Notes: a model not told the origin generated them from the sequence alone. DNA of 64,000 nucleotides from an uncultured Gammaproteobacteria bacterium (GCA_964609155.1 CAZSRF010000007.1:839-64838), one strand, 5' to 3'. Counted from the stretch's first letter, positions 1 to 14,732 are shown. Translations and numbers: made by a program.

Positions 1-85
1 CAACGGAAACAACCAATACTAACCATGTAATCACAACTTTTAAAGATAAAATTGCTGCTTTAAAAAATAACTTTTATGGTCATGA

Positions 86-2251
86 TTAAAAACCACTTTC
101 TCGCAACATGATGGCGACAGCTCGCCGCCAAAACCTAGACATTATACTTACTTTTTCGCCATATAGATATAACTTTCCTTTTACAGAAAAATTAGGCAAA
201 TCTTTTATTGACACGTTACTTGGCTTAGCTATAACCTGATAAACTGCATCATGTAAAATTAAATTTTCAACTTCTCTTGTACGCTTAGTTTCTGCATTTT
301 TGTTTAAAAAAGTTGTCAACTCACCACCATATAGTGATGCTAAATATTTATTATCTAAATATTTACTGCCTGCCTTATTAAATCTTATTAATTGCACCTG
401 TATTGGAGCAAATCTCATTCGTTCAAAATAAAATTGTCCGTTAATTTTTGTAATATCCACATTAAGCCTAGCCACATCATGTTCATCCATATAACCCGTT
501 ATAGATAATGTTCCAGGATCGCTGACAGTAAACAAATAATTATTTTGATCATGCCAGGTATTTACCTTCAAATATTTTGATATATCTGTAATTTGACCAT
601 CATAAGGAGCAGCTATAGTAAGTTTAGCTTTTTCAGCTAAAGCACCTGCCAACTCAGATTCTTTGTCCATCAGCTCTTGTGCAGATGCCTGCTTCTCACC
701 TAAAACACGCCCCAAACCACTTTGTTCTCGTAATTTATTTTTGATAATATTTAACTCAACGGTTGACTTATTTACTTGATAATCGATTTCATCTGAAGTA
801 AATGCTGCTAAAACAGCATCTTTTTTCACCCAATCCCCCTGTTTAATATCTAATTTTTTTAACAACCCAGGGTTAAGAGTATATATTTTTACTTCTTTTT
901 CATATGTTAAAACAGCAGGAGTTTCGATTCTATTTTGCAATGGTACAAATAAAAGAATAACTCCAAATACAAAAATTGTTATTGTGACTAATGCTCGAGT
1001 AGGTAAATGTTCTGTTTTTTTCAAAAGCGCAGCACAAGCTATTGCTTCTTTATAGGCTGGATTAAGAATAAACAAATAAACTTCTGCTATCATCAATACA
1101 ACACCAAGTATTTTGAAAAAATAAAAATACACAATAGTAGCCACAGATAGATACAAACTAATTCTATATACCCATGAGAAATAAGCATAAAATAAATACA
1201 GCCTTAAGTCAGATTTTGAACATGGAACAGGTTGAGCGCCCTTGATTCCAAACAACTGCTTTCTAAAGTACCATGTAGCCAAGTTGTAAGCTTTAGTTTG
1301 CAAATTATCAGTCGCTAAAATCTCAGAGATAATATGATACCCATCATACCGTAATAATGGATTAGCATTAATTAAAATTGTGCTTATTATTGAAACAGTT
1401 GGTATATAAATTAAAATACTACGTAACACTCCATCATCTATCAACCCCCACAAAAATAGAGCTATAATGGCTACCCCAGTTTCTGCAATAATACCAGCAC
1501 TGGCAACAACAGTTCTATGATGTCGACTTTTAAGACGCCAAGTATCTGTTGTATCTGTATAAAAAACAGGCCAAAAAACTAACAAAGCTATCCCCATAGT
1601 AGGTATTTTACAACCATAATACTTTGCTACAAACGCATGACCAAGCTCATGAAAGAATTTGGTTACAAGTACAGCGACAGATAAAATAAACATATTCTGT
1701 GGTGTAAATAAATAGTCAAACTGACCTATAAATTCACCCCATTGTCGCATTATAAGATACAATCCCATCACAAGAATAAAAAATAATACATATAAAGTTT
1801 TTTTGGTAAATAAAACTTTGACATATTTCAACATGTGCCTCAAAGCCTTATCTGGCTTAAACAACGGCACTTGCAAGAATAAATATTTTTGTAGCGCTTT
1901 TTGAATAATATGTTTTTTACTGTCAGAATGTACTTGGTATAGATAATCACCAGTATTGCTTTGATCTATCTCTAGTAATTCGTTCAATTTTAAGAACTCT
2001 AATATTTTCTCTATATTTACAGTATTTATTTTTGTGGTCGTCGTAGCATTAACTATTTTACAAATATCATCTGGATTACCAAGATACCAGTGAGATATTA
2101 TTTCAAACTCCTGCCATCCAATACGAAAAAACTTTTCTTTCAATGGATCATGAATAACCCATGTTGGAGCACCAAATTTGTCATGCCCTCCATCAATAAT
2201 ATCAAGCTCCGATCTTAAGTTTGGTAAAGATTGAATAGCTACAGTGGCCAT
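86..2251 (-). CDS. M50 (site-2 protease family) intramembrane zinc metalloprotease fused to a C-terminal HlyD-like periplasmic adaptor domain
   Basis: Both S2P catalytic motifs are intact: HELGH (nt 1637-1651) and NPLLRYDG (nt 1343-1366), inside a polytopic hydrophobic core. The C-terminal ~270 aa has HlyD-like lipoyl half-motifs (GDWVKKDAVLA, TIAAPYDGQITDI) flanking a coiled coil. The track ORF starts at TTG 2281. The ATG at 2251 lies 2 nt after the upstream stop and is the likelier start. Confidence 0.8.
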   Translation of the reverse strand: MATVAIQSLPNLRSELDIIDGGHDKFGAPTWVIHDPLKEKFFRIGWQEFEIISHWYLGNPDDICKIVNATTTTKINTVNIEKILEFLKLNELLEIDQSNTGDYLYQVHSDSKKHIIQKALQKYLFLQVPLFKPDKALRHMLKYVKVLFTKKTLYVLFFILVMGLYLIMRQWGEFIGQFDYLFTPQNMFILSVAVLVTKFFHELGHAFVAKYYGCKIPTMGIALLVFWPVFYTDTTDTWRLKSRHHRTVVASAGIIAETGVAIIALFLWGLIDDGVLRSILIYIPTVSIISTILINANPLLRYDGYHIISEILATDNLQTKAYNLATWYFRKQLFGIKGAQPVPCSKSDLRLYLFYAYFSWVYRISLYLSVATIVYFYFFKILGVVLMIAEVYLFILNPAYKEAIACAALLKKTEHLPTRALVTITIFVFGVILLFVPLQNRIETPAVLTYEKEVKIYTLNPGLLKKLDIKQGDWVKKDAVLAAFTSDEIDYQVNKSTVELNIIKNKLREQSGLGRVLGEKQASAQELMDKESELAGALAEKAKLTIAAPYDGQITDISKYLKVNTWHDQNNYLFTVSDPGTLSITGYMDEHDVARLNVDITKINGQFYFERMRFAPIQVQLIRFNKAGSKYLDNKYLASLYGGELTTFLNKNAETKRTREVENLILHDAVYQVIAKPSNVSIKDLPNFSVKGKLYLYGEKVSIMSRFWRRAVAIMLRESGF

Positions 2252-2253
2252 AA

Positions 2254-3618
2254 TTAAATTCCAATTGTTCGGCGCAACCAAGAAATCGGTTTTCTAAATA
2301 TATAATATATCAACAGTACCCTGTTGCCATATATTTTAGCTGTACCCTTTATTCCAAATCGTTCATCTTTATTGAATTCATTTGTAAAATCTGCAACACC
2401 GTAATAAGCAAGTTTATCATCAGGCTGTAAGTCTGCATGTTTACTGATAAAATTTATATTAGCTTTCATTGGAGACAATGGCTTAGGATTGGGATAAAAC
2501 ACAACTTGTGATCTATCTGGCATTTCAATAAGATCATCAATTGGAATAAAAAGATCTAATTGTTTATTACTCTCACTCGCCAAGAGCATCACACGTTCAC
2601 CAATTTCTACTGGTCGACCTAGCCAGTTTTTTGGGTCTGAAAATATTACTGTACCAGCAAATTCAGCTCTTATCACAGCTCGATCTAACAATAGCTTATT
2701 ATAATTTGCTTCTATTTCTGCAATTTTAATGTCATCACTTAACACCCTTAGGTCGTTTTTGGCTTGAGCATCATTGTAGGATTGTTGATATCCTTTCCTA
2801 TACTTTTCTCTAACGACATCAAGACCTTTCTCTGATTGATCATATTTATTCTGCAAAGTAATTGTATCTAGCTTAAATAACGGTTGTCCTGCTCTAACCA
2901 TCTGATTTGGTAGAACATAAATCTCTTTAATCATTCCTTTTATTGACGAAGCTATAACTGTAGGGTTTTTAGGAGAGATTTCCGCAGGAACCAGTACTGA
3001 ATCCCGAATGGGATAAAACAAAACTAATAAAATTATAAATATAATAGTCTTCCTAGACTCATGAACTTTTTTTAATTTTTTATAAGAAGATACTTTATTT
3101 TGATATAAACGCCATATGTTTGAATAATATGTCATTACTTTCGGTATTTTTTCAATTACTTCAGGCGTCCAGTTCTCTGATGCTAATAGTATCAAACCAC
3201 CTTTCCTGGCACCTGGAAACAACACAGACACCATATACTTATACATTTCACCATCGTAACTTGCTATTGCGTCTTTAAATTTATCGATAGAAAAAAATGT
3301 TACTTTATTAGTTTCAAAAGCCAATTTTGGTAACAAGACTTTTTCCCATAAATGAATGTATGGAGCATGATGATTAACCACGCTAATAGCAGAGACTGCA
3401 AAAATCTTATAACCGTGCAAACTTTCTTGCCAAACAATAGCTTGATCATAAGGAATAATTTTTTTAGTATGATTTACTATATGAAAAGCTAATTGGGTGA
3501 TACTTGTAGACGTGAGTGCTTTACTAATTAACCAGGTTAAAGTTTTATCGTAACTATTTTCCTTTTGTTCTTCTGCGTTTGATTGGTTAGATGGAGTAAA
3601 TTTTATTTCTGTAGCCAT
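2254..3618 (-). CDS. HlyD-family membrane-fusion (adaptor) protein with ~185-aa cytoplasmic N-terminal domain
   Basis: Single TM anchor (IIFIILLVLFYPI) followed by HlyD-type lipoyl halves (IKGMIKEIYVLPNQMVRAGQPLFKLD, VIRAEFAGTVIF) around a coiled coil. The N-terminal domain has a GAF-like pattern (inference). There are 2-nt gaps to both neighbouring genes. Confidence 0.8.
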   Translation of the reverse strand: MATEIKFTPSNQSNAEEQKENSYDKTLTWLISKALTSTSITQLAFHIVNHTKKIIPYDQAIVWQESLHGYKIFAVSAISVVNHHAPYIHLWEKVLLPKLAFETNKVTFFSIDKFKDAIASYDGEMYKYMVSVLFPGARKGGLILLASENWTPEVIEKIPKVMTYYSNIWRLYQNKVSSYKKLKKVHESRKTIIFIILLVLFYPIRDSVLVPAEISPKNPTVIASSIKGMIKEIYVLPNQMVRAGQPLFKLDTITLQNKYDQSEKGLDVVREKYRKGYQQSYNDAQAKNDLRVLSDDIKIAEIEANYNKLLLDRAVIRAEFAGTVIFSDPKNWLGRPVEIGERVMLLASESNKQLDLFIPIDDLIEMPDRSQVVFYPNPKPLSPMKANINFISKHADLQPDDKLAYYGVADFTNEFNKDERFGIKGTAKIYGNRVLLIYYIFRKPISWLRRTIGI

Positions 3619-3620
3619 GT

Positions 3621-4466
3621 TTATGGCCCTTTAAATGTAGCATTACCACTTTCCCCTACAAAAAGCCCTGTGCTCTCACTAGTTATTTTACCAATCAACT
3701 TCACTGATTGACTAACAGCATCAGCATTGTAAATAATTTTGGTGACTTTTGCTTTATATTTACTACTAGTCTCTTTTATTGAAACTTCAAAATCGTCATT
3801 AATTTTTATCCAACTTAACCATTCTGATGGTACAATTGCAGTTACGTCTAAGTTCTTATTGTCTATTATGCTAAACAATTTATCACCTGCTTTTACAGTT
3901 TCAAAGTTTCTTACCTTTAATTCCATTAGTTGACCATCAAATGGAGCTTTTTGTATACAACGTTCAGCTTTGTATTGTGCAATCTTCAGCTTAGCTAATG
4001 AACTTTCGTAATCTCCTTGGCTTGTTAGTAATTCTGTTTTACTAGCACCATCTAAATTTGCTAGATTCTTCATAGCTTGATATTTTTTTTCATTAACAAT
4101 ATTTTCTGCTTTACTTTTTTCTAAATCTGCCGTGTAAACCGTACAATCAAATTTTAATAATACGTCATTTGCTTTAAAGTAATCACCTTCTTTGACTAAA
4201 ATTTCTTTAATTGTTCCATCTATTTCTGTCGAGATGACTGCTTGATTAGTTGTGGTTAATACTGCAGGAACTGCATACTTATCTATATTTAATTCACTAC
4301 CCAATGAAGTTATATGTGAATTTGGCAAATTAGTGGAATTATTTTGATTGGCTGTACTTTTATTATGTTGATTATTAACATCATTAGAAATAAACGTATT
4401 TTGCGCTTGCAAAATACTAATCGTAGTAATCATGACTAATGTAATTTTTTTTACTTTATGCTTCAT
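3621..4466 (-). CDS. Periplasmic adaptor subunit (efflux MFP/HlyD_D23-like), signal peptide
   Basis: N-terminal signal sequence (ITLVMITTISILQA). Lipoyl halves (ISTEIDGTIKEILVKEGDYFKANDVLLKFD, IQKAPFDGQLMELKV) with a short alpha-hairpin, then a beta-barrel-like C-terminus. The start overlaps the upstream stop (ATGA, 4463-4466). Confidence 0.75.
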   Translation of the reverse strand: MKHKVKKITLVMITTISILQAQNTFISNDVNNQHNKSTANQNNSTNLPNSHITSLGSELNIDKYAVPAVLTTTNQAVISTEIDGTIKEILVKEGDYFKANDVLLKFDCTVYTADLEKSKAENIVNEKKYQAMKNLANLDGASKTELLTSQGDYESSLAKLKIAQYKAERCIQKAPFDGQLMELKVRNFETVKAGDKLFSIIDNKNLDVTAIVPSEWLSWIKINDDFEVSIKETSSKYKAKVTKIIYNADAVSQSVKLIGKITSESTGLFVGESGNATFKGP

Positions 4467-6595
4467 AGCACGGCACTAATTAAATTTTTCTCTATATTTT
4501 TAGTATTATTTATCACACGCACCTGAGTTTGCATTTTACCTCTTGCTTGTGGCTCAGAGTTTGGTATCTGCTTTGGAAGCACTGAAGCAGGAGCAGGTGG
4601 ATTAACAGGTTCTACAGGAGTTGAACTAGGTTGTTGTTGCACAGGTTCTGGTGTAACTACAGGAGTAACTGGTGTATTAGATGGCAAAGGAGGATTAACA
4701 TTTCCTTCAATCTGGGTAGTTACAGGAGCAACCGGTGCACTAGATGGCAAAGGAGGATTAACATTTCCTTCAGTCTGGGTAGTTACAGGAGCAACAGGTG
4801 TACTAGATTGCAAAGGAGGAGCGACATTTTTTCCTTCATCCGGTGTAACTACCTTTAATTTTGCCTGTGCATTCTCAGGACGTCGGCGTATTCTCGAAAC
4901 TTTGTTTTTTTTATGATTGGATTTAATCTTAGCATCATTCTTAGATTTATCTTTCATGTTAATTACAGATGTATTATCCAATTTAGCTTGTTTCAACTTA
5001 GGCGACTCTAATCGAAGACCTTGCATTGGGATATCATTAATAGATTGGGATTTAGGTTTATTTATTTTTGATTTATTAAATTTAGCATATTTGCCCTTAA
5101 TCTCATCTAATGTTATATAAAACCCTTGCTTGCTTTTAAGAGAATCTGCTATCTCTTTAGCAATTGCTTTTATTGGCTGATTTAATGTAGTTAATTTATG
5201 CACACTGTTATAACCAACAGAATCTAATAATTCATGATAAGCGGAGAGTTTATCAAAATGCGCAGTTAAAACCCTTAATTTAGCGTCAAAATAATTAATT
5301 TTAGCATTGTATACTTCTAATTGACTTGCCAGATCAGATACCGAACGTTTTTTAAGATTTTCATAGACTATCTCATTATCTTCATAAAAACCTTGAGCCA
5401 GAACACTATTTCTTTCTGCCTCTAATAATCTCACATAAGCAATATTAACTTGAGTCAAAATAGATACTGCCAAAGCCTGACGACGAATTTTGCCAAGATC
5501 TTTATTTGCATTAGCTTTTTCTAAACGAGTATATTTACTAAAAAGATCTAATAAATTACCCGTCAATTGAACTGCTGTCTGCTTCCAAAAATTATAAACT
5601 AGAAAAGATGTGCTGTCATGAAATGCGCCATAATTTAGAGTAAAATTTGGTATCATTTGAAGCCGAGCTTTATAAATCTCATCCATATCAATACGGTTTT
5701 TTAACAACTCCTCTCTTATTTCAGAACGATTATGCAAAGCTAACAATTCGATTTGCTGTATATTATACGGTAAAGAGTTTAACTGTATTTTATCATCATA
5801 AGCCGTATTTAATTCAATTTTTGAGGCTGTTGGCACATTAATCAATAACGCTAATGTTACCACCGCTCTTTCAAGATTATTTTTCATTTTATTTATTTCG
5901 GTAGATTTATCCCATAATGCTATCCGAAATTCAGCTGCTTTTTCTTTAGATATTAACTGCTCTTTTTCCTGTTTTTTAGACTTTTCTATAGCTTGATCAA
6001 TTTCTTTGCTAAGTAGATTAATTTGTGGAATAATATTATTAGTAACGTGACTAGCCCAATATGCGGTACGTGTATCTCGAACAATCTCTTGTAATAGGGT
6101 TTTCTTTTTTTCTTCAAGCATTAAATATTCATTGGCTTTTTGTTTTGAGTTATAGTAGCTAATCCCAAAATCAAGAATACTCCATGACAATTGTAAATCT
6201 AATGTATTCGTATATTTATTACGCGACAAAGATACTTGATTTGTATTAGGCGATAAAACTTTACCTGGTCGATCACGGGCTGTGTAATTAAAATTTGCAA
6301 CAAGATCTGGAAGCATTTCATAGGTAACAGCACGATGCTCTATCAAACCTACTGCAGCTTCTTGAATTTTTTGTTTGTAACTTAAATTATATTTAATAGC
6401 TCTTGCAATTGCTTCTGAAAGGGTCAATGGCTTGATTAATGGTTCAGTAGTACGATAACGCTCAGAACGATCTAGATATAATGCTTTTTTAATCTCATCT
6501 TTAGTTAATGGTTCAGGATTAACTGAGCAACCATTAATAACCAAAATTAACAATAAAAAAGGTAAAAAAACTAACTTAGTATAATTGCTCTTCAT
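4463..6595 (-). CDS. TolC/NodT-family outer-membrane efflux lipoprotein with ~230-aa Lys- and Pro-rich C-terminal extension
   Basis: Lipobox (LVINGC). The first ~480 aa have the duplicated alpha-helical/beta pattern of outer-membrane efflux proteins (LTLSEAIARAIKYNLSYK, LNIAYVRLLEAERN). The C-terminal tail is KxK-rich, followed by PVAPVTTQxEGNVNPPLP repeats. Confidence 0.8.
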   Translation of the reverse strand: MKSNYTKLVFLPFLLLILVINGCSVNPEPLTKDEIKKALYLDRSERYRTTEPLIKPLTLSEAIARAIKYNLSYKQKIQEAAVGLIEHRAVTYEMLPDLVANFNYTARDRPGKVLSPNTNQVSLSRNKYTNTLDLQLSWSILDFGISYYNSKQKANEYLMLEEKKKTLLQEIVRDTRTAYWASHVTNNIIPQINLLSKEIDQAIEKSKKQEKEQLISKEKAAEFRIALWDKSTEINKMKNNLERAVVTLALLINVPTASKIELNTAYDDKIQLNSLPYNIQQIELLALHNRSEIREELLKNRIDMDEIYKARLQMIPNFTLNYGAFHDSTSFLVYNFWKQTAVQLTGNLLDLFSKYTRLEKANANKDLGKIRRQALAVSILTQVNIAYVRLLEAERNSVLAQGFYEDNEIVYENLKKRSVSDLASQLEVYNAKINYFDAKLRVLTAHFDKLSAYHELLDSVGYNSVHKLTTLNQPIKAIAKEIADSLKSKQGFYITLDEIKGKYAKFNKSKINKPKSQSINDIPMQGLRLESPKLKQAKLDNTSVINMKDKSKNDAKIKSNHKKNKVSRIRRRPENAQAKLKVVTPDEGKNVAPPLQSSTPVAPVTTQTEGNVNPPLPSSAPVAPVTTQIEGNVNPPLPSNTPVTPVVTPEPVQQQPSSTPVEPVNPPAPASVLPKQIPNSEPQARGKMQTQVRVINNTKNIEKNLISAVL
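4647..4852. repeat. In-frame 63-bp tandem repeat (about 3 copies), encoding 21-aa Pro-rich units
   Basis: Units at 4678-4740 and 4741-4803 are near-identical (tagatggcaaaggaggattaacatttccttca...). Degenerate partial copies flank them on both sides. Confidence 0.9.
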
Positions 6596-13061: not shown

Positions 13062-14732
13062 CTAATAGATAGTCAAAGGAGAAATCATTTCACCGCAAAC
13101 GTTTGATTGAGCTAGTGGAGCATCACTTTCTAATGGTATTGGTAATGGCTTTTGTTGAAATTTATAACAATGATAAGTTCGCATAGGTTTCACTGCGGCA
13201 GCCACATCTACTCCTGGTGCAACAGAATCTGCTACTCCAGCTACTCTAACTACTCTAACTACTCTAAGAGACGCTGGATAGTCTGAAGCATCAGGTAAAG
13301 GGCTAAATGCATCAATAGACGCTTTGCTGTTAGCAGTAAAAGACGCAGTATAAATTAGACCAAAAGCTAAATACTTTAAAACCCACACACTAGTTAACAA
13401 CGCCGAAACACCTGTCGCTACTCCCGTTGCATTACCTATGCAAAATAGTACCAACACACCTATAATTGTGTAGTTTATAATATTATTATACCATCTCTTA
13501 CTACCTAAATTTAAAGGATCTGTCGACGACTCAGCTTTCGTTCTATCTGCCGTCCCACTAAAGTATCTGTAGATGGTGTTTTTAATTGTGCCTAAAAACT
13601 GATATAAATTTTTGCCGTAAAATATACCATTTAAGCAACCAAGAACACTTATTATACCTGCTGATATTTGACTGGTAGTGATGCCAAAACCAAATAAACT
13701 TGTTAGTAATTGAAAAGATTCATTATAAAACCAAAGCTGAGCAAAAATAATCGCCGCTGCTGATAAACTAAGAGAAATCAAATCTGAGAAACCTAATTTC
13801 TTCCAACCAGATTCTGCAAAGAATTTTTTAAAACTTAAATAAGTCTTGTAACAAATTGGCTTAAATAATGCTATATTGGCCAAAGCAGTAACCGTTGCAA
13901 AAAATACTGATGCGATAAATAACAAGGGCAATGATGCTGACATAACAGCAGCAGCGGAACCTAAGCCATAGATCAGCATCCCAGCTGGCACATAAATAGA
14001 ATTAAATAAAAGTATTCCCATCGCTACACCAGCGAATACAGTAATAAAATTTAGGACCTGTTCTTCAAAAGAATTTATTTTAGGTTTTTTTGCTGCTTTT
14101 TTCTCTGATTTAAAAAAATTTTTTATAAATGAATAAATATCATTTTTATACAAAAAATAACTTACACAAAAAGCAGATAAACCAAAAACTGCCACATTAA
14201 ATAATGTAAAAACTCCATAACCATAAACTGCTAAAGCTCCTTCTGGAAAGGCCACTAAGAAAGCCAAAGCGAAAGCTAAATATCCAAAAAAATCTTTAAA
14301 ACGACGACGGGAAATTCTTTCTTTTTTTAGATTATTATACTCATTCCATGTGAATTCTTTAGACAAATCATGCCTACTAATTAGATAATTAAGATTGTGT
14401 GCATCAAGATATCTATTGATAGCAACTTTGATTTTTTTTAAACCAGGATCTTTGTGATCACTAGTTACACTGTGCTTTATAAATGTCTGTAATAAAATAT
14501 TGGCAAAACCGTCCTGGGTTAAATCTTTGGCGTGTTCGCAGCAAGCAGTTTGCAAGTCCTCTATAAACTTGTAACGCTTGGTATTTATGGCACATTCAAG
14601 TATATCTAAAAGATTTGCGTCGTAGTAACCACTAAAAAAAGGAATTTTGTTGAGTTTACTTTTTACATAATAACCTAAAGCGCTTGATTCGGTTATTATC
14701 CTAATAGTTCTTAATTCTCTTTCTACACTCAT
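13062..14732 (-). CDS. Hypothetical polytopic membrane protein (556 aa) with soluble N-terminal ~150 aa
   Basis: About 10 hydrophobic segments after a charged N-domain. The C-terminal tail carries VRV repeats and a Pro/acidic stretch. I recognise no family. Confidence 0.55.
   Translation of the reverse strand: MSVERELRTIRIITESSALGYYVKSKLNKIPFFSGYYDANLLDILECAINTKRYKFIEDLQTACCEHAKDLTQDGFANILLQTFIKHSVTSDHKDPGLKKIKVAINRYLDAHNLNYLISRHDLSKEFTWNEYNNLKKERISRRRFKDFFGYLAFALAFLVAFPEGALAVYGYGVFTLFNVAVFGLSAFCVSYFLYKNDIYSFIKNFFKSEKKAAKKPKINSFEEQVLNFITVFAGVAMGILLFNSIYVPAGMLIYGLGSAAAVMSASLPLLFIASVFFATVTALANIALFKPICYKTYLSFKKFFAESGWKKLGFSDLISLSLSAAAIIFAQLWFYNESFQLLTSLFGFGITTSQISAGIISVLGCLNGIFYGKNLYQFLGTIKNTIYRYFSGTADRTKAESSTDPLNLGSKRWYNNIINYTIIGVLVLFCIGNATGVATGVSALLTSVWVLKYLAFGLIYTASFTANSKASIDAFSPLPDASDYPASLRVVRVVRVAGVADSVAPGVDVAAAVKPMRTYHCYKFQQKPLPIPLESDAPLAQSNVCGEMISPLTIY
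13241..13267. repeat. In-frame 9-bp tandem repeat x3 (ctactctaa), encoding (VRV)n
   Basis: Direct reading of 13241-13267, within the 3' part of the 556-aa ORF. Confidence 0.9.

Follow-up and report, generated by a model that had tools for sequence, protein, structure and literature searches.

In a 64,000-nucleotide stretch of DNA from an uncultured gammaproteobacterium (GCA_964609155.1, CAZSRF010000007.1:839-64838), hereafter referred to as the window, the minus-strand gene at positions 86..2251 codes for a 721-residue protein (stop codon at 86-88) in which an N-terminal domain is fused to a site-2 protease of the M50 family and to an HlyD-type adaptor. Structure prediction and profile comparison support the assignment of its N-terminal ~90 residues to a PqqD-like winged helix, predicted to be cytoplasmic, of the type that recognizes leaders of ribosomally synthesized peptides with post-translational modifications (RiPPs), the RiPP recognition element (RRE). 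The gene closes a cassette of four minus-strand genes in the order TolC, HlyD, HlyD, RRE-M50-HlyD, and the leader bound by its RRE is probably the LEPR-XLL motif of the giant proteins encoded beside this cassette, rather than that of a small RiPP peptide. We infer three steps, and hold them together to be reasonably probable, if far from assured: docking of the giants' LEPR leader by the RRE, its cleavage by the M50 protease, and export through HlyD/TolC.

The initial annotation had singled out residues 1-115 (1907..2251, minus strand) as an RRE-like region by eye, and the residues it quoted are found exactly as given in the minus-strand open reading frame (ORF) 86..2281. N-terminal regions were cut from homologues of the fusion protein, 1,776 of which were retrieved, and 48 of them were aligned for conservation analysis and for AlphaFold2, which yielded block-mean predicted local distance difference test (pLDDT) values of 95-97 over residues 11-90. 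The strand-then-helix pattern read by eye takes the form of three strands (residues 17-23, 29-35 and 40-44) and then three helices (46-53, 60-70 and 77-89) in the model, and the same elements appear in the full-length AlphaFold2 model. The resulting winged-helix core (residues 17-89; 1985..2203, minus strand) thus has the three-stranded sheet and three helices of the RRE fold and is superposable on solved RREs; it is preceded by a disordered N-terminus with a conserved LPxLR motif, and is followed by a linker helix (97-112) leading into the membrane domain.

Foldseek matched the domain to TbiB1 and CteB with probabilities of 1.00 and 0.98, respectively. Profile searches were less direct: the Pfam PqqD family (PF05402) was not matched at E<=1 by either the whole fusion protein or residues 1-130, the latter on their own yielded nothing relevant in Pfam or NCBIfam, and a profile search against PDB sequences returned chance matches only (e.g. 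P-Rex1 and TGA3), so that the fold assignment rests on structure. A related M50 fusion on a Pseudosulfitobacter plasmid, which aligns with the window protein across the RRE, the M50 domain and the first part of the adaptor (tblastn E 1.6e-45), does pass the Pfam PqqD model (26.8 bits vs. a cut-off of 23.4), and hhalign tied the window-domain profile to this PqqD-positive domain at 94% (E 1.4e-7, 107 columns). The sequence link to PF05402 is therefore transitive only, via the sister-family domain. The lack of any profile or structure match, or a match to an unrelated domain, had been named in the initial annotation as grounds for abandoning the PqqD/RRE assignment; the opposite was found, with Foldseek and hhalign in agreement.

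The 48-sequence alignment gave the consensus LPxLRxDLxLxxGPxxxDGxPTWTLHDPxRNxFFRIGWxEFEILSRW...FLxxNxL, with R13, W31, D35, F86 and L92 invariant, W55 and L87 invariant or nearly so, and the strongest conservation in strands 2-3 and helix 3. The domain profile recovered 1,657 clusters at 50% identity with E<=1e-3, and 1,188 with E<=1e-10. Nearly all of the long clusters measured 700-730 residues, and this type of RRE is therefore essentially confined to the fusion. As judged from the alignment, such conservation means that the pattern is not a chance likeness.

The remainder of the fusion protein is equally well delimited. The M50 membrane domain, with seven predicted transmembrane helices (residues 150-435; 947..1804, minus strand; AlphaFold2 helices, hydropathy and positive-inside loops), contains the zinc-binding motif HELGH (residues 201-205; 1637..1651, minus strand) and the second site-2 protease motif NANPLLRYDG (residues 295-304; 1340..1369, minus strand). 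In an alignment of 62 homologues, H201, E202 and H205 of the former are invariant, as are N295, D303 and G304 of the latter (NxxPxxxxDG), while P298 is retained in at least 90%, and with both motifs conserved the protease looks active. Both lie in membrane helices, and PF02163 (Peptidase_M50) is matched at residues 191-295 with 33.7 bits, above its gathering score of 27.2, which places the protein among the M50/site-2 proteases. The C-terminal HlyD-type part (residues 439-721; 89..937, minus strand; Pfam, NCBIfam and AlphaFold2), in which HlyD_3 is also matched, carries a short alpha-hairpin at residues 487-542.

In the full-length model (mean pLDDT 85.7), seven hydrophobic helices between residues 150 and 435 precede the HlyD-type domain, and K/R-rich loops fall on the same side as the N-terminus by both hydropathy and the model. 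We therefore expect an N-in/C-out topology with the RRE in the cytoplasm and the adaptor part in the periplasm, and the cytoplasmic placement of the domain proposed by the initial annotation is in line with this arrangement of seven helices and positive-inside loops. The start of the gene is likely to be the ATG at 2251, which sits 2 nt past the stop of the upstream gene and is preferred because it agrees with the N-termini of relatives 95% and 69% identical to the window protein; the mechanical ORF 86..2281 opens with a TTG at 2281, 30 nt further upstream, and overlaps the preceding gene.

Among curated NCBIfam models, the top match of the fusion protein is NF041824, the daptide intramembrane metalloprotease (daptide_HExxH), aligned over residues 30-389 with an E value of 1.1e-43 but a score of 149.8 bits, below the curated cut-off of 300; the match to NF058609 (YydH/LiaK) is weaker, at 56 bits vs. 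a cut-off of 225. The window-family members encountered are labelled only as “HlyD family efflux transporter periplasmic adaptor subunit”, “site-2 protease family protein” or “putative peptide zinc metalloprotease”.

The cassette upstream of the fusion gene begins with a TolC-family outer membrane factor, a lipoprotein of 710 residues (4463..6595, minus strand; Pfam OEP 95 bits, synteny), followed by a first adaptor of 281 residues with RND_mfp/HlyD_D23 matches (3621..4466, minus strand) and a second adaptor of 454 residues (2254..3618, minus strand), in which a ~190-residue N-terminal domain precedes the HlyD domain; both adaptors are assigned by Pfam, NCBIfam and synteny. To compare loci we used a full-length alignment query and one genome per species, which gave at least 598 confirmed relatives, and 80 loci were kept. 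The relatives among the matches listed (at least 598 species) belong to Gamma-, Alpha- and Betaproteobacteria, Nitrospira, Scalindua, Desulfobacterota and Pelagibacteraceae, and the fusion gene was also found on 18 E. coli, eight Citrobacter and one Hafnia plasmids. Across the 80 loci, the second adaptor gene is kept directly upstream of the fusion gene, and the four-gene order is maintained almost everywhere that the available flank allows it to be seen.

No inner-membrane transporter family (ABC, RND or MFS) is conserved at these loci, which sets the cassette apart from type I secretion systems and tripartite pumps. ABC ATPases at the loci were heterogeneous and showed no linkage to the cassette, and a SecA-like ATPase and DUF3467, both of which occur in the sister family described below, are absent from the 80 window-family loci and from the window. 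Pfam and NCBIfam scans combined with synteny revealed no RiPP-modifying enzymes in the cassette. Two of its proteins have segments that stand out. Residues 1-199 of the second adaptor (3022-3618, minus strand) are conserved, presumably cytoplasmic, and matched no Pfam family; the sister-family counterpart carries a GAF domain at that position. The C-terminal ~230 residues of the TolC-family protein (4463-5150, minus strand) are Lys-rich and then form a Pro/Thr/Val-rich tail with near-repeats (NVAPPLQSSTPVAPVTTQTEGNVNPPLPSSAPVAPVTTQIEGNVNPPLPSNTPV...); the related loci align for the most part as far as residue 460-500 of this protein.

We sought candidate substrates of the RRE in the vicinity of the cassettes. 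A search for short ORFs with leader-like N-termini near orthologous operons, as proposed in the initial annotation, covered all 14,165 ORFs of at least 25 residues from the 80 loci, clustered all against all, and no conserved small ORF family emerged, the only recurrent clusters being shadow ORFs of the cassette genes themselves; the idea of a small precursor was therefore set aside. A very large gene is found repeatedly instead, in most cases with its end directly upstream of the TolC gene and at times with its start directly downstream of the fusion gene. In the cases in which the N-terminus can be seen, the encoded protein begins with a basic stretch, followed by the motif [A/L]LEPR[I/L/M][M/L]FD[G/A]A (“ALEPRxMFDGAA”), an acidic linker and a conserved domain, which Pfam identifies as DUF4347 (PF14252, E about 1e-53), and then by Big_13, Big_9, Cadherin_4 and He_PIG repeats.

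We counted 31 LEPR-type motifs that lead into an open frame of 150 codons or more, spread over 30 of the 80 loci, and none in the reversed sequences. NF012209, the “LEPR-XLL domain” model with a cut-off of 17 bits, was reached by the giants of three out of six relatives (18.2, 19.8 and 17.8 bits). At 56 of the 80 loci, either a motif protein or an adjacent ORF of 900 residues or more is encoded; when the count is confined to the 36 loci flanked by 5 kb on each side, 32 of them contain a motif protein or an ORF of this size at any position. Annotated plasmids independently show this arrangement. On Azospirillum argentinense p2, genes labelled “DUF4347 domain-containing protein” and “Ig-like domain-containing protein” are followed by those for TolC, two adaptors and the fusion; on a Kosakonia plasmid, a cassette of similar arrangement is accompanied by a gene for a 2,347-residue Ig-like protein starting with ...WSLEPRMLFDGA; and the E. 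coli IncF plasmid pABWA45_1 (NZ_CP022155.1; loci L084/L086) codes for a 4,457-residue Ig-like protein starting with MTTIKNRRLRPRAHRFALESRQLFDGAA, followed by the full cassette. This plasmid would be a convenient experimental system.

The window itself begins 85 bases downstream of the fusion gene, where the 3′ end of a convergent Ig/cadherin-repeat gene (1..89, plus strand), a candidate substrate, leaves the C-terminal 28 residues of its product visible (...TETTNTNHVITTFKDKIAALKNNFYGHD, followed by the stop codon). Its stop at 87-89 overlaps that of the fusion gene at 86-88. On another contig (L081), with a fusion protein 95% identical to that of the window, the same ORF continues over 308 residues or more, with Big_9 and Cadherin_4 domains in it, and the window cassette therefore also adjoins a large repeat protein. 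Many giants share a weak C-terminal motif, approximately G-K/R-P-x-L/F-x-x-Q-L-x-x-x-G followed by a Leu-rich helix, seen in loci L028, L032, L033, L040, L052, L060, L061, L067, L068, L074, L078-L080 and others, and the C-terminus of the window giant (...TFKDKIAALKNNFYG) resembles its variant in Colwellia and Pelagibacter. The motif is real, but proved too weak to serve as a classifier.

A further view of the RRE-giant association is offered by the sister family to which the Pseudosulfitobacter protein belongs, and three plasmid loci, from Pseudosulfitobacter, Pontibrevibacter and Methylosinus, were inspected. PGAP calls these M50 fusions “PqqD family peptide modification chaperone” on plasmids of Rhodobacterales and Methylosinus, and all three are encoded beside LEPRVLLS/NAD-bearing giants of 8,847-12,737 residues. 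On the Pseudosulfitobacter plasmid (NZ_CP085155.1; L085), the giant is a 12,737-residue protein starting with ...ETFEPRVLLSAD and scoring 33 bits against NF012209, and it is followed by DUF3467, a GAF-HlyD adaptor, the PqqD-M50 fusion and a 660-residue truncated SecA-like ATPase. The annotated gene order is the same in Pontibrevibacter, where the 10,603-residue protein (...DPMEPRVLLSAD) is called “LEPR-XLL domain-containing protein” by PGAP, and in Methylosinus, where TolC is added and the giant has 8,847 residues (...DTLEPRVLLNAD). The SecA-like ATPase has the look of a motor dedicated to translocating proteins of 8,800-12,700 residues; the gene at this position in the other two loci (L088 and L089) is annotated as “DEAD/DEAH box helicase” or “prepilin peptidase”.

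The two families thus have homologous RRE, M50 and early adaptor regions and are both encoded beside adaptors and giant LEPR-XLL proteins, but differ in that the Pseudosulfitobacter N-terminal domain passes Pfam PqqD and its cassette adds DUF3467, the GAF-HlyD adaptor and the SecA-like ATPase. They also differ in the leader, which is LEPRVLLS/NAD in the sister family and LEPRxMFDGAA in the window family, so that RRE subfamily and leader variant change together. That both RRE-M50 families adjoin LEPR giants, each with its own variant of the motif, is the strongest argument that the RRE reads the motif.

In the mechanism we propose, the cytoplasmic RRE would take up the LEPR motif in its strand-3/helix-3 groove, where the motif would form an additional strand, the bound leader would present the downstream Ala-rich segment to the M50 active site, which would remove the leader, and the giant protein would be passed outward via the HlyD/TolC conduit. 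We may speculate that the invariant E and R of the leader pair by charge with the invariant R13 and D35 of the RRE. More tentatively, the RRE-M50 fusion, HlyD and TolC may make up an as yet undescribed envelope-spanning pathway that reads and removes the LEPR-XLL motif and exports or installs the adhesin-like giants, in some cases with the help of a SecA-like ATPase, and there is a substantial chance that the system marks a distinct protein-sorting pathway.

Several observations weigh against the proposed mechanism. Genomic linkage fits anchoring, release or quality control equally as well as export. Site-2 proteases normally cut in or beside membrane helices, and the LEPR leader is not obviously one. 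The window-family cassette comes without an ATPase that could power the export of a protein of 2,000-4,500 residues. At about a quarter of the loci, the reachable sequence contains no giant neighbour, and some of the ORFs of at least 900 residues counted above are unrelated genes. Finally, no LEPR motif is present within the 64 kb of the window, the N-terminus of the neighbouring giant lying outside it.

Two other explanations of the RRE deserve to be weighed against leader recognition in the giants, and a third was already disfavoured. The RRE could recognize the leader of a small RiPP or bacteriocin whose gene lies elsewhere, in which case the cassette would be a pump for peptide maturation and export, as envisaged in the initial annotation and comparable to daptide MpaP or EpeP/YydH. 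All characterised RREs do bind short precursor peptides, the best family matches of the fusion are the daptide and YydH/LiaK maturation proteases, and M50 enzymes are known to process RiPPs (PMC10885120). We nevertheless consider it quite unlikely, since both matches score far under their family cut-offs, the cassette lacks RiPP-modifying enzymes, and the sole neighbour to recur at the 80 loci is not a small ORF but a giant with a conserved N-terminal motif.

The location of the conserved residues bears on another possibility, namely, that the RRE-like domain has lost peptide binding and persists as a structural or regulatory module, e.g. one that gates the M50 active site or touches the second adaptor's cytoplasmic domain, while the giant is handled in some other way, e.g. 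via its C-terminus. Conservation peaks in strands 2-3 and in helix 3, the site at which leaders are bound by RREs. The leader motif is comparably well conserved, and its variant tracks the RRE subfamily; on these grounds, loss of binding is unlikely, even if the most conserved parts of the domain could also reflect intramolecular contacts, the second adaptor has a conserved, presumably cytoplasmic domain of its own (GAF in the sister family), and the giants share the weak C-terminal motif. Least credible of all, and very improbable, is a DNA-binding winged helix that regulated intramembrane proteolysis would release, as happens in signalling by site-2 proteases.

Comparison of the proposed leader-reading system with known ones shows partial likeness to several of them. 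The RRE-M50 fusion as such is not new, being already known from daptide clusters, in which MpaP/DapP combines an N-terminal RRE with an intramembrane site-2 (M50) protease for leader removal (Ren et al. 2023, PMC10036551). The window protein resembles MpaP/DapP over the region aligned with NF041824. MpaP, however, lacks an HlyD part at its C-terminus, is found in Gram-positive hosts and, together with modifying enzymes, processes short precursors whose leader reads ELExMEAP, whereas the window fusion is accompanied by a TolC/adaptor cassette and giant proteins, and its neighbours are not daptide enzymes, which leaves it outside the daptide systems. EpeP/YydH, likewise an intramembrane protease of the M50 family, is believed to combine cleavage of its peptide with export, but comes from a Gram-positive setting, and its low-scoring match to the window protein covers only the M50 region, starting at residue 104, after the RRE. 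The lasso-peptide B1 proteins TfuB1/TbiB1, as well as PqqD, are stand-alone proteins of ~85-95 residues with 15-17% identity to the window domain, and their partner is a cysteine protease or a radical-SAM enzyme, in contrast to the M50 fusion of the window.

A TolC-family channel and HlyD adaptors beside a giant repeat protein recall the type I secretion of giant adhesins, and the peptidase-containing bacteriocin exporters similarly unite leader recognition, cleavage and export in one inner-membrane protein. In contrast, the window-family cassette has no ABC transporter and the conserved signal is N-terminal rather than C-terminal; with respect to the bacteriocin exporters, RRE and M50 take the place of the C39 peptidase.

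To our knowledge, RREs have so far been known only from peptide natural-product biosynthesis. If the proposed reading is true, the domain would have been reused for protein sorting, and hundreds of species, as well as E. coli plasmids, would carry a protein secretion or sorting system in which the RRE is the signal receptor. RREs also serve as markers in the mining of peptide natural products, and a large RRE family tied to a TolC cassette and giant proteins would give false RiPP leads. LEPR-XLL (NF012209), a curated model for the N-termini of very large proteins, gains a candidate receptor and protease from the linkage. We found no paper giving LEPR-XLL a partner, none describing a site-2 protease-HlyD fusion in a TolC cassette, and no description of this system in the literature on DUF4347, LEPR-XLL and DUF3467; as far as the searchable literature goes, a TolC cassette that includes an RRE-M50-HlyD fusion and is coupled to LEPR-XLL giants thus appears to be undescribed. 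The hosts of the cassette include nitrifiers, methanotrophs, SAR11, rhizobia and E. coli/Citrobacter plasmids, and a role of the giants as surface adhesins could therefore matter for biofilm formation and host association.

Genes of ~195-225 codons lie near the cassette in Azospirillum (L082, 1-1853), Kosakonia (L083, 17137-19244), Chromobacterium (L061, 13395-13982) and Paludibacterium (L074, ~13099-13683). Phage tail-collar genes were rejected as a cassette partner, being found at a few loci only, with the probe positive in 2 of 80. The plasmid records of Azospirillum and Kosakonia call theirs “tail fiber protein”, and the Chromobacterium gene product resembles a phage tail-collar domain by eye.

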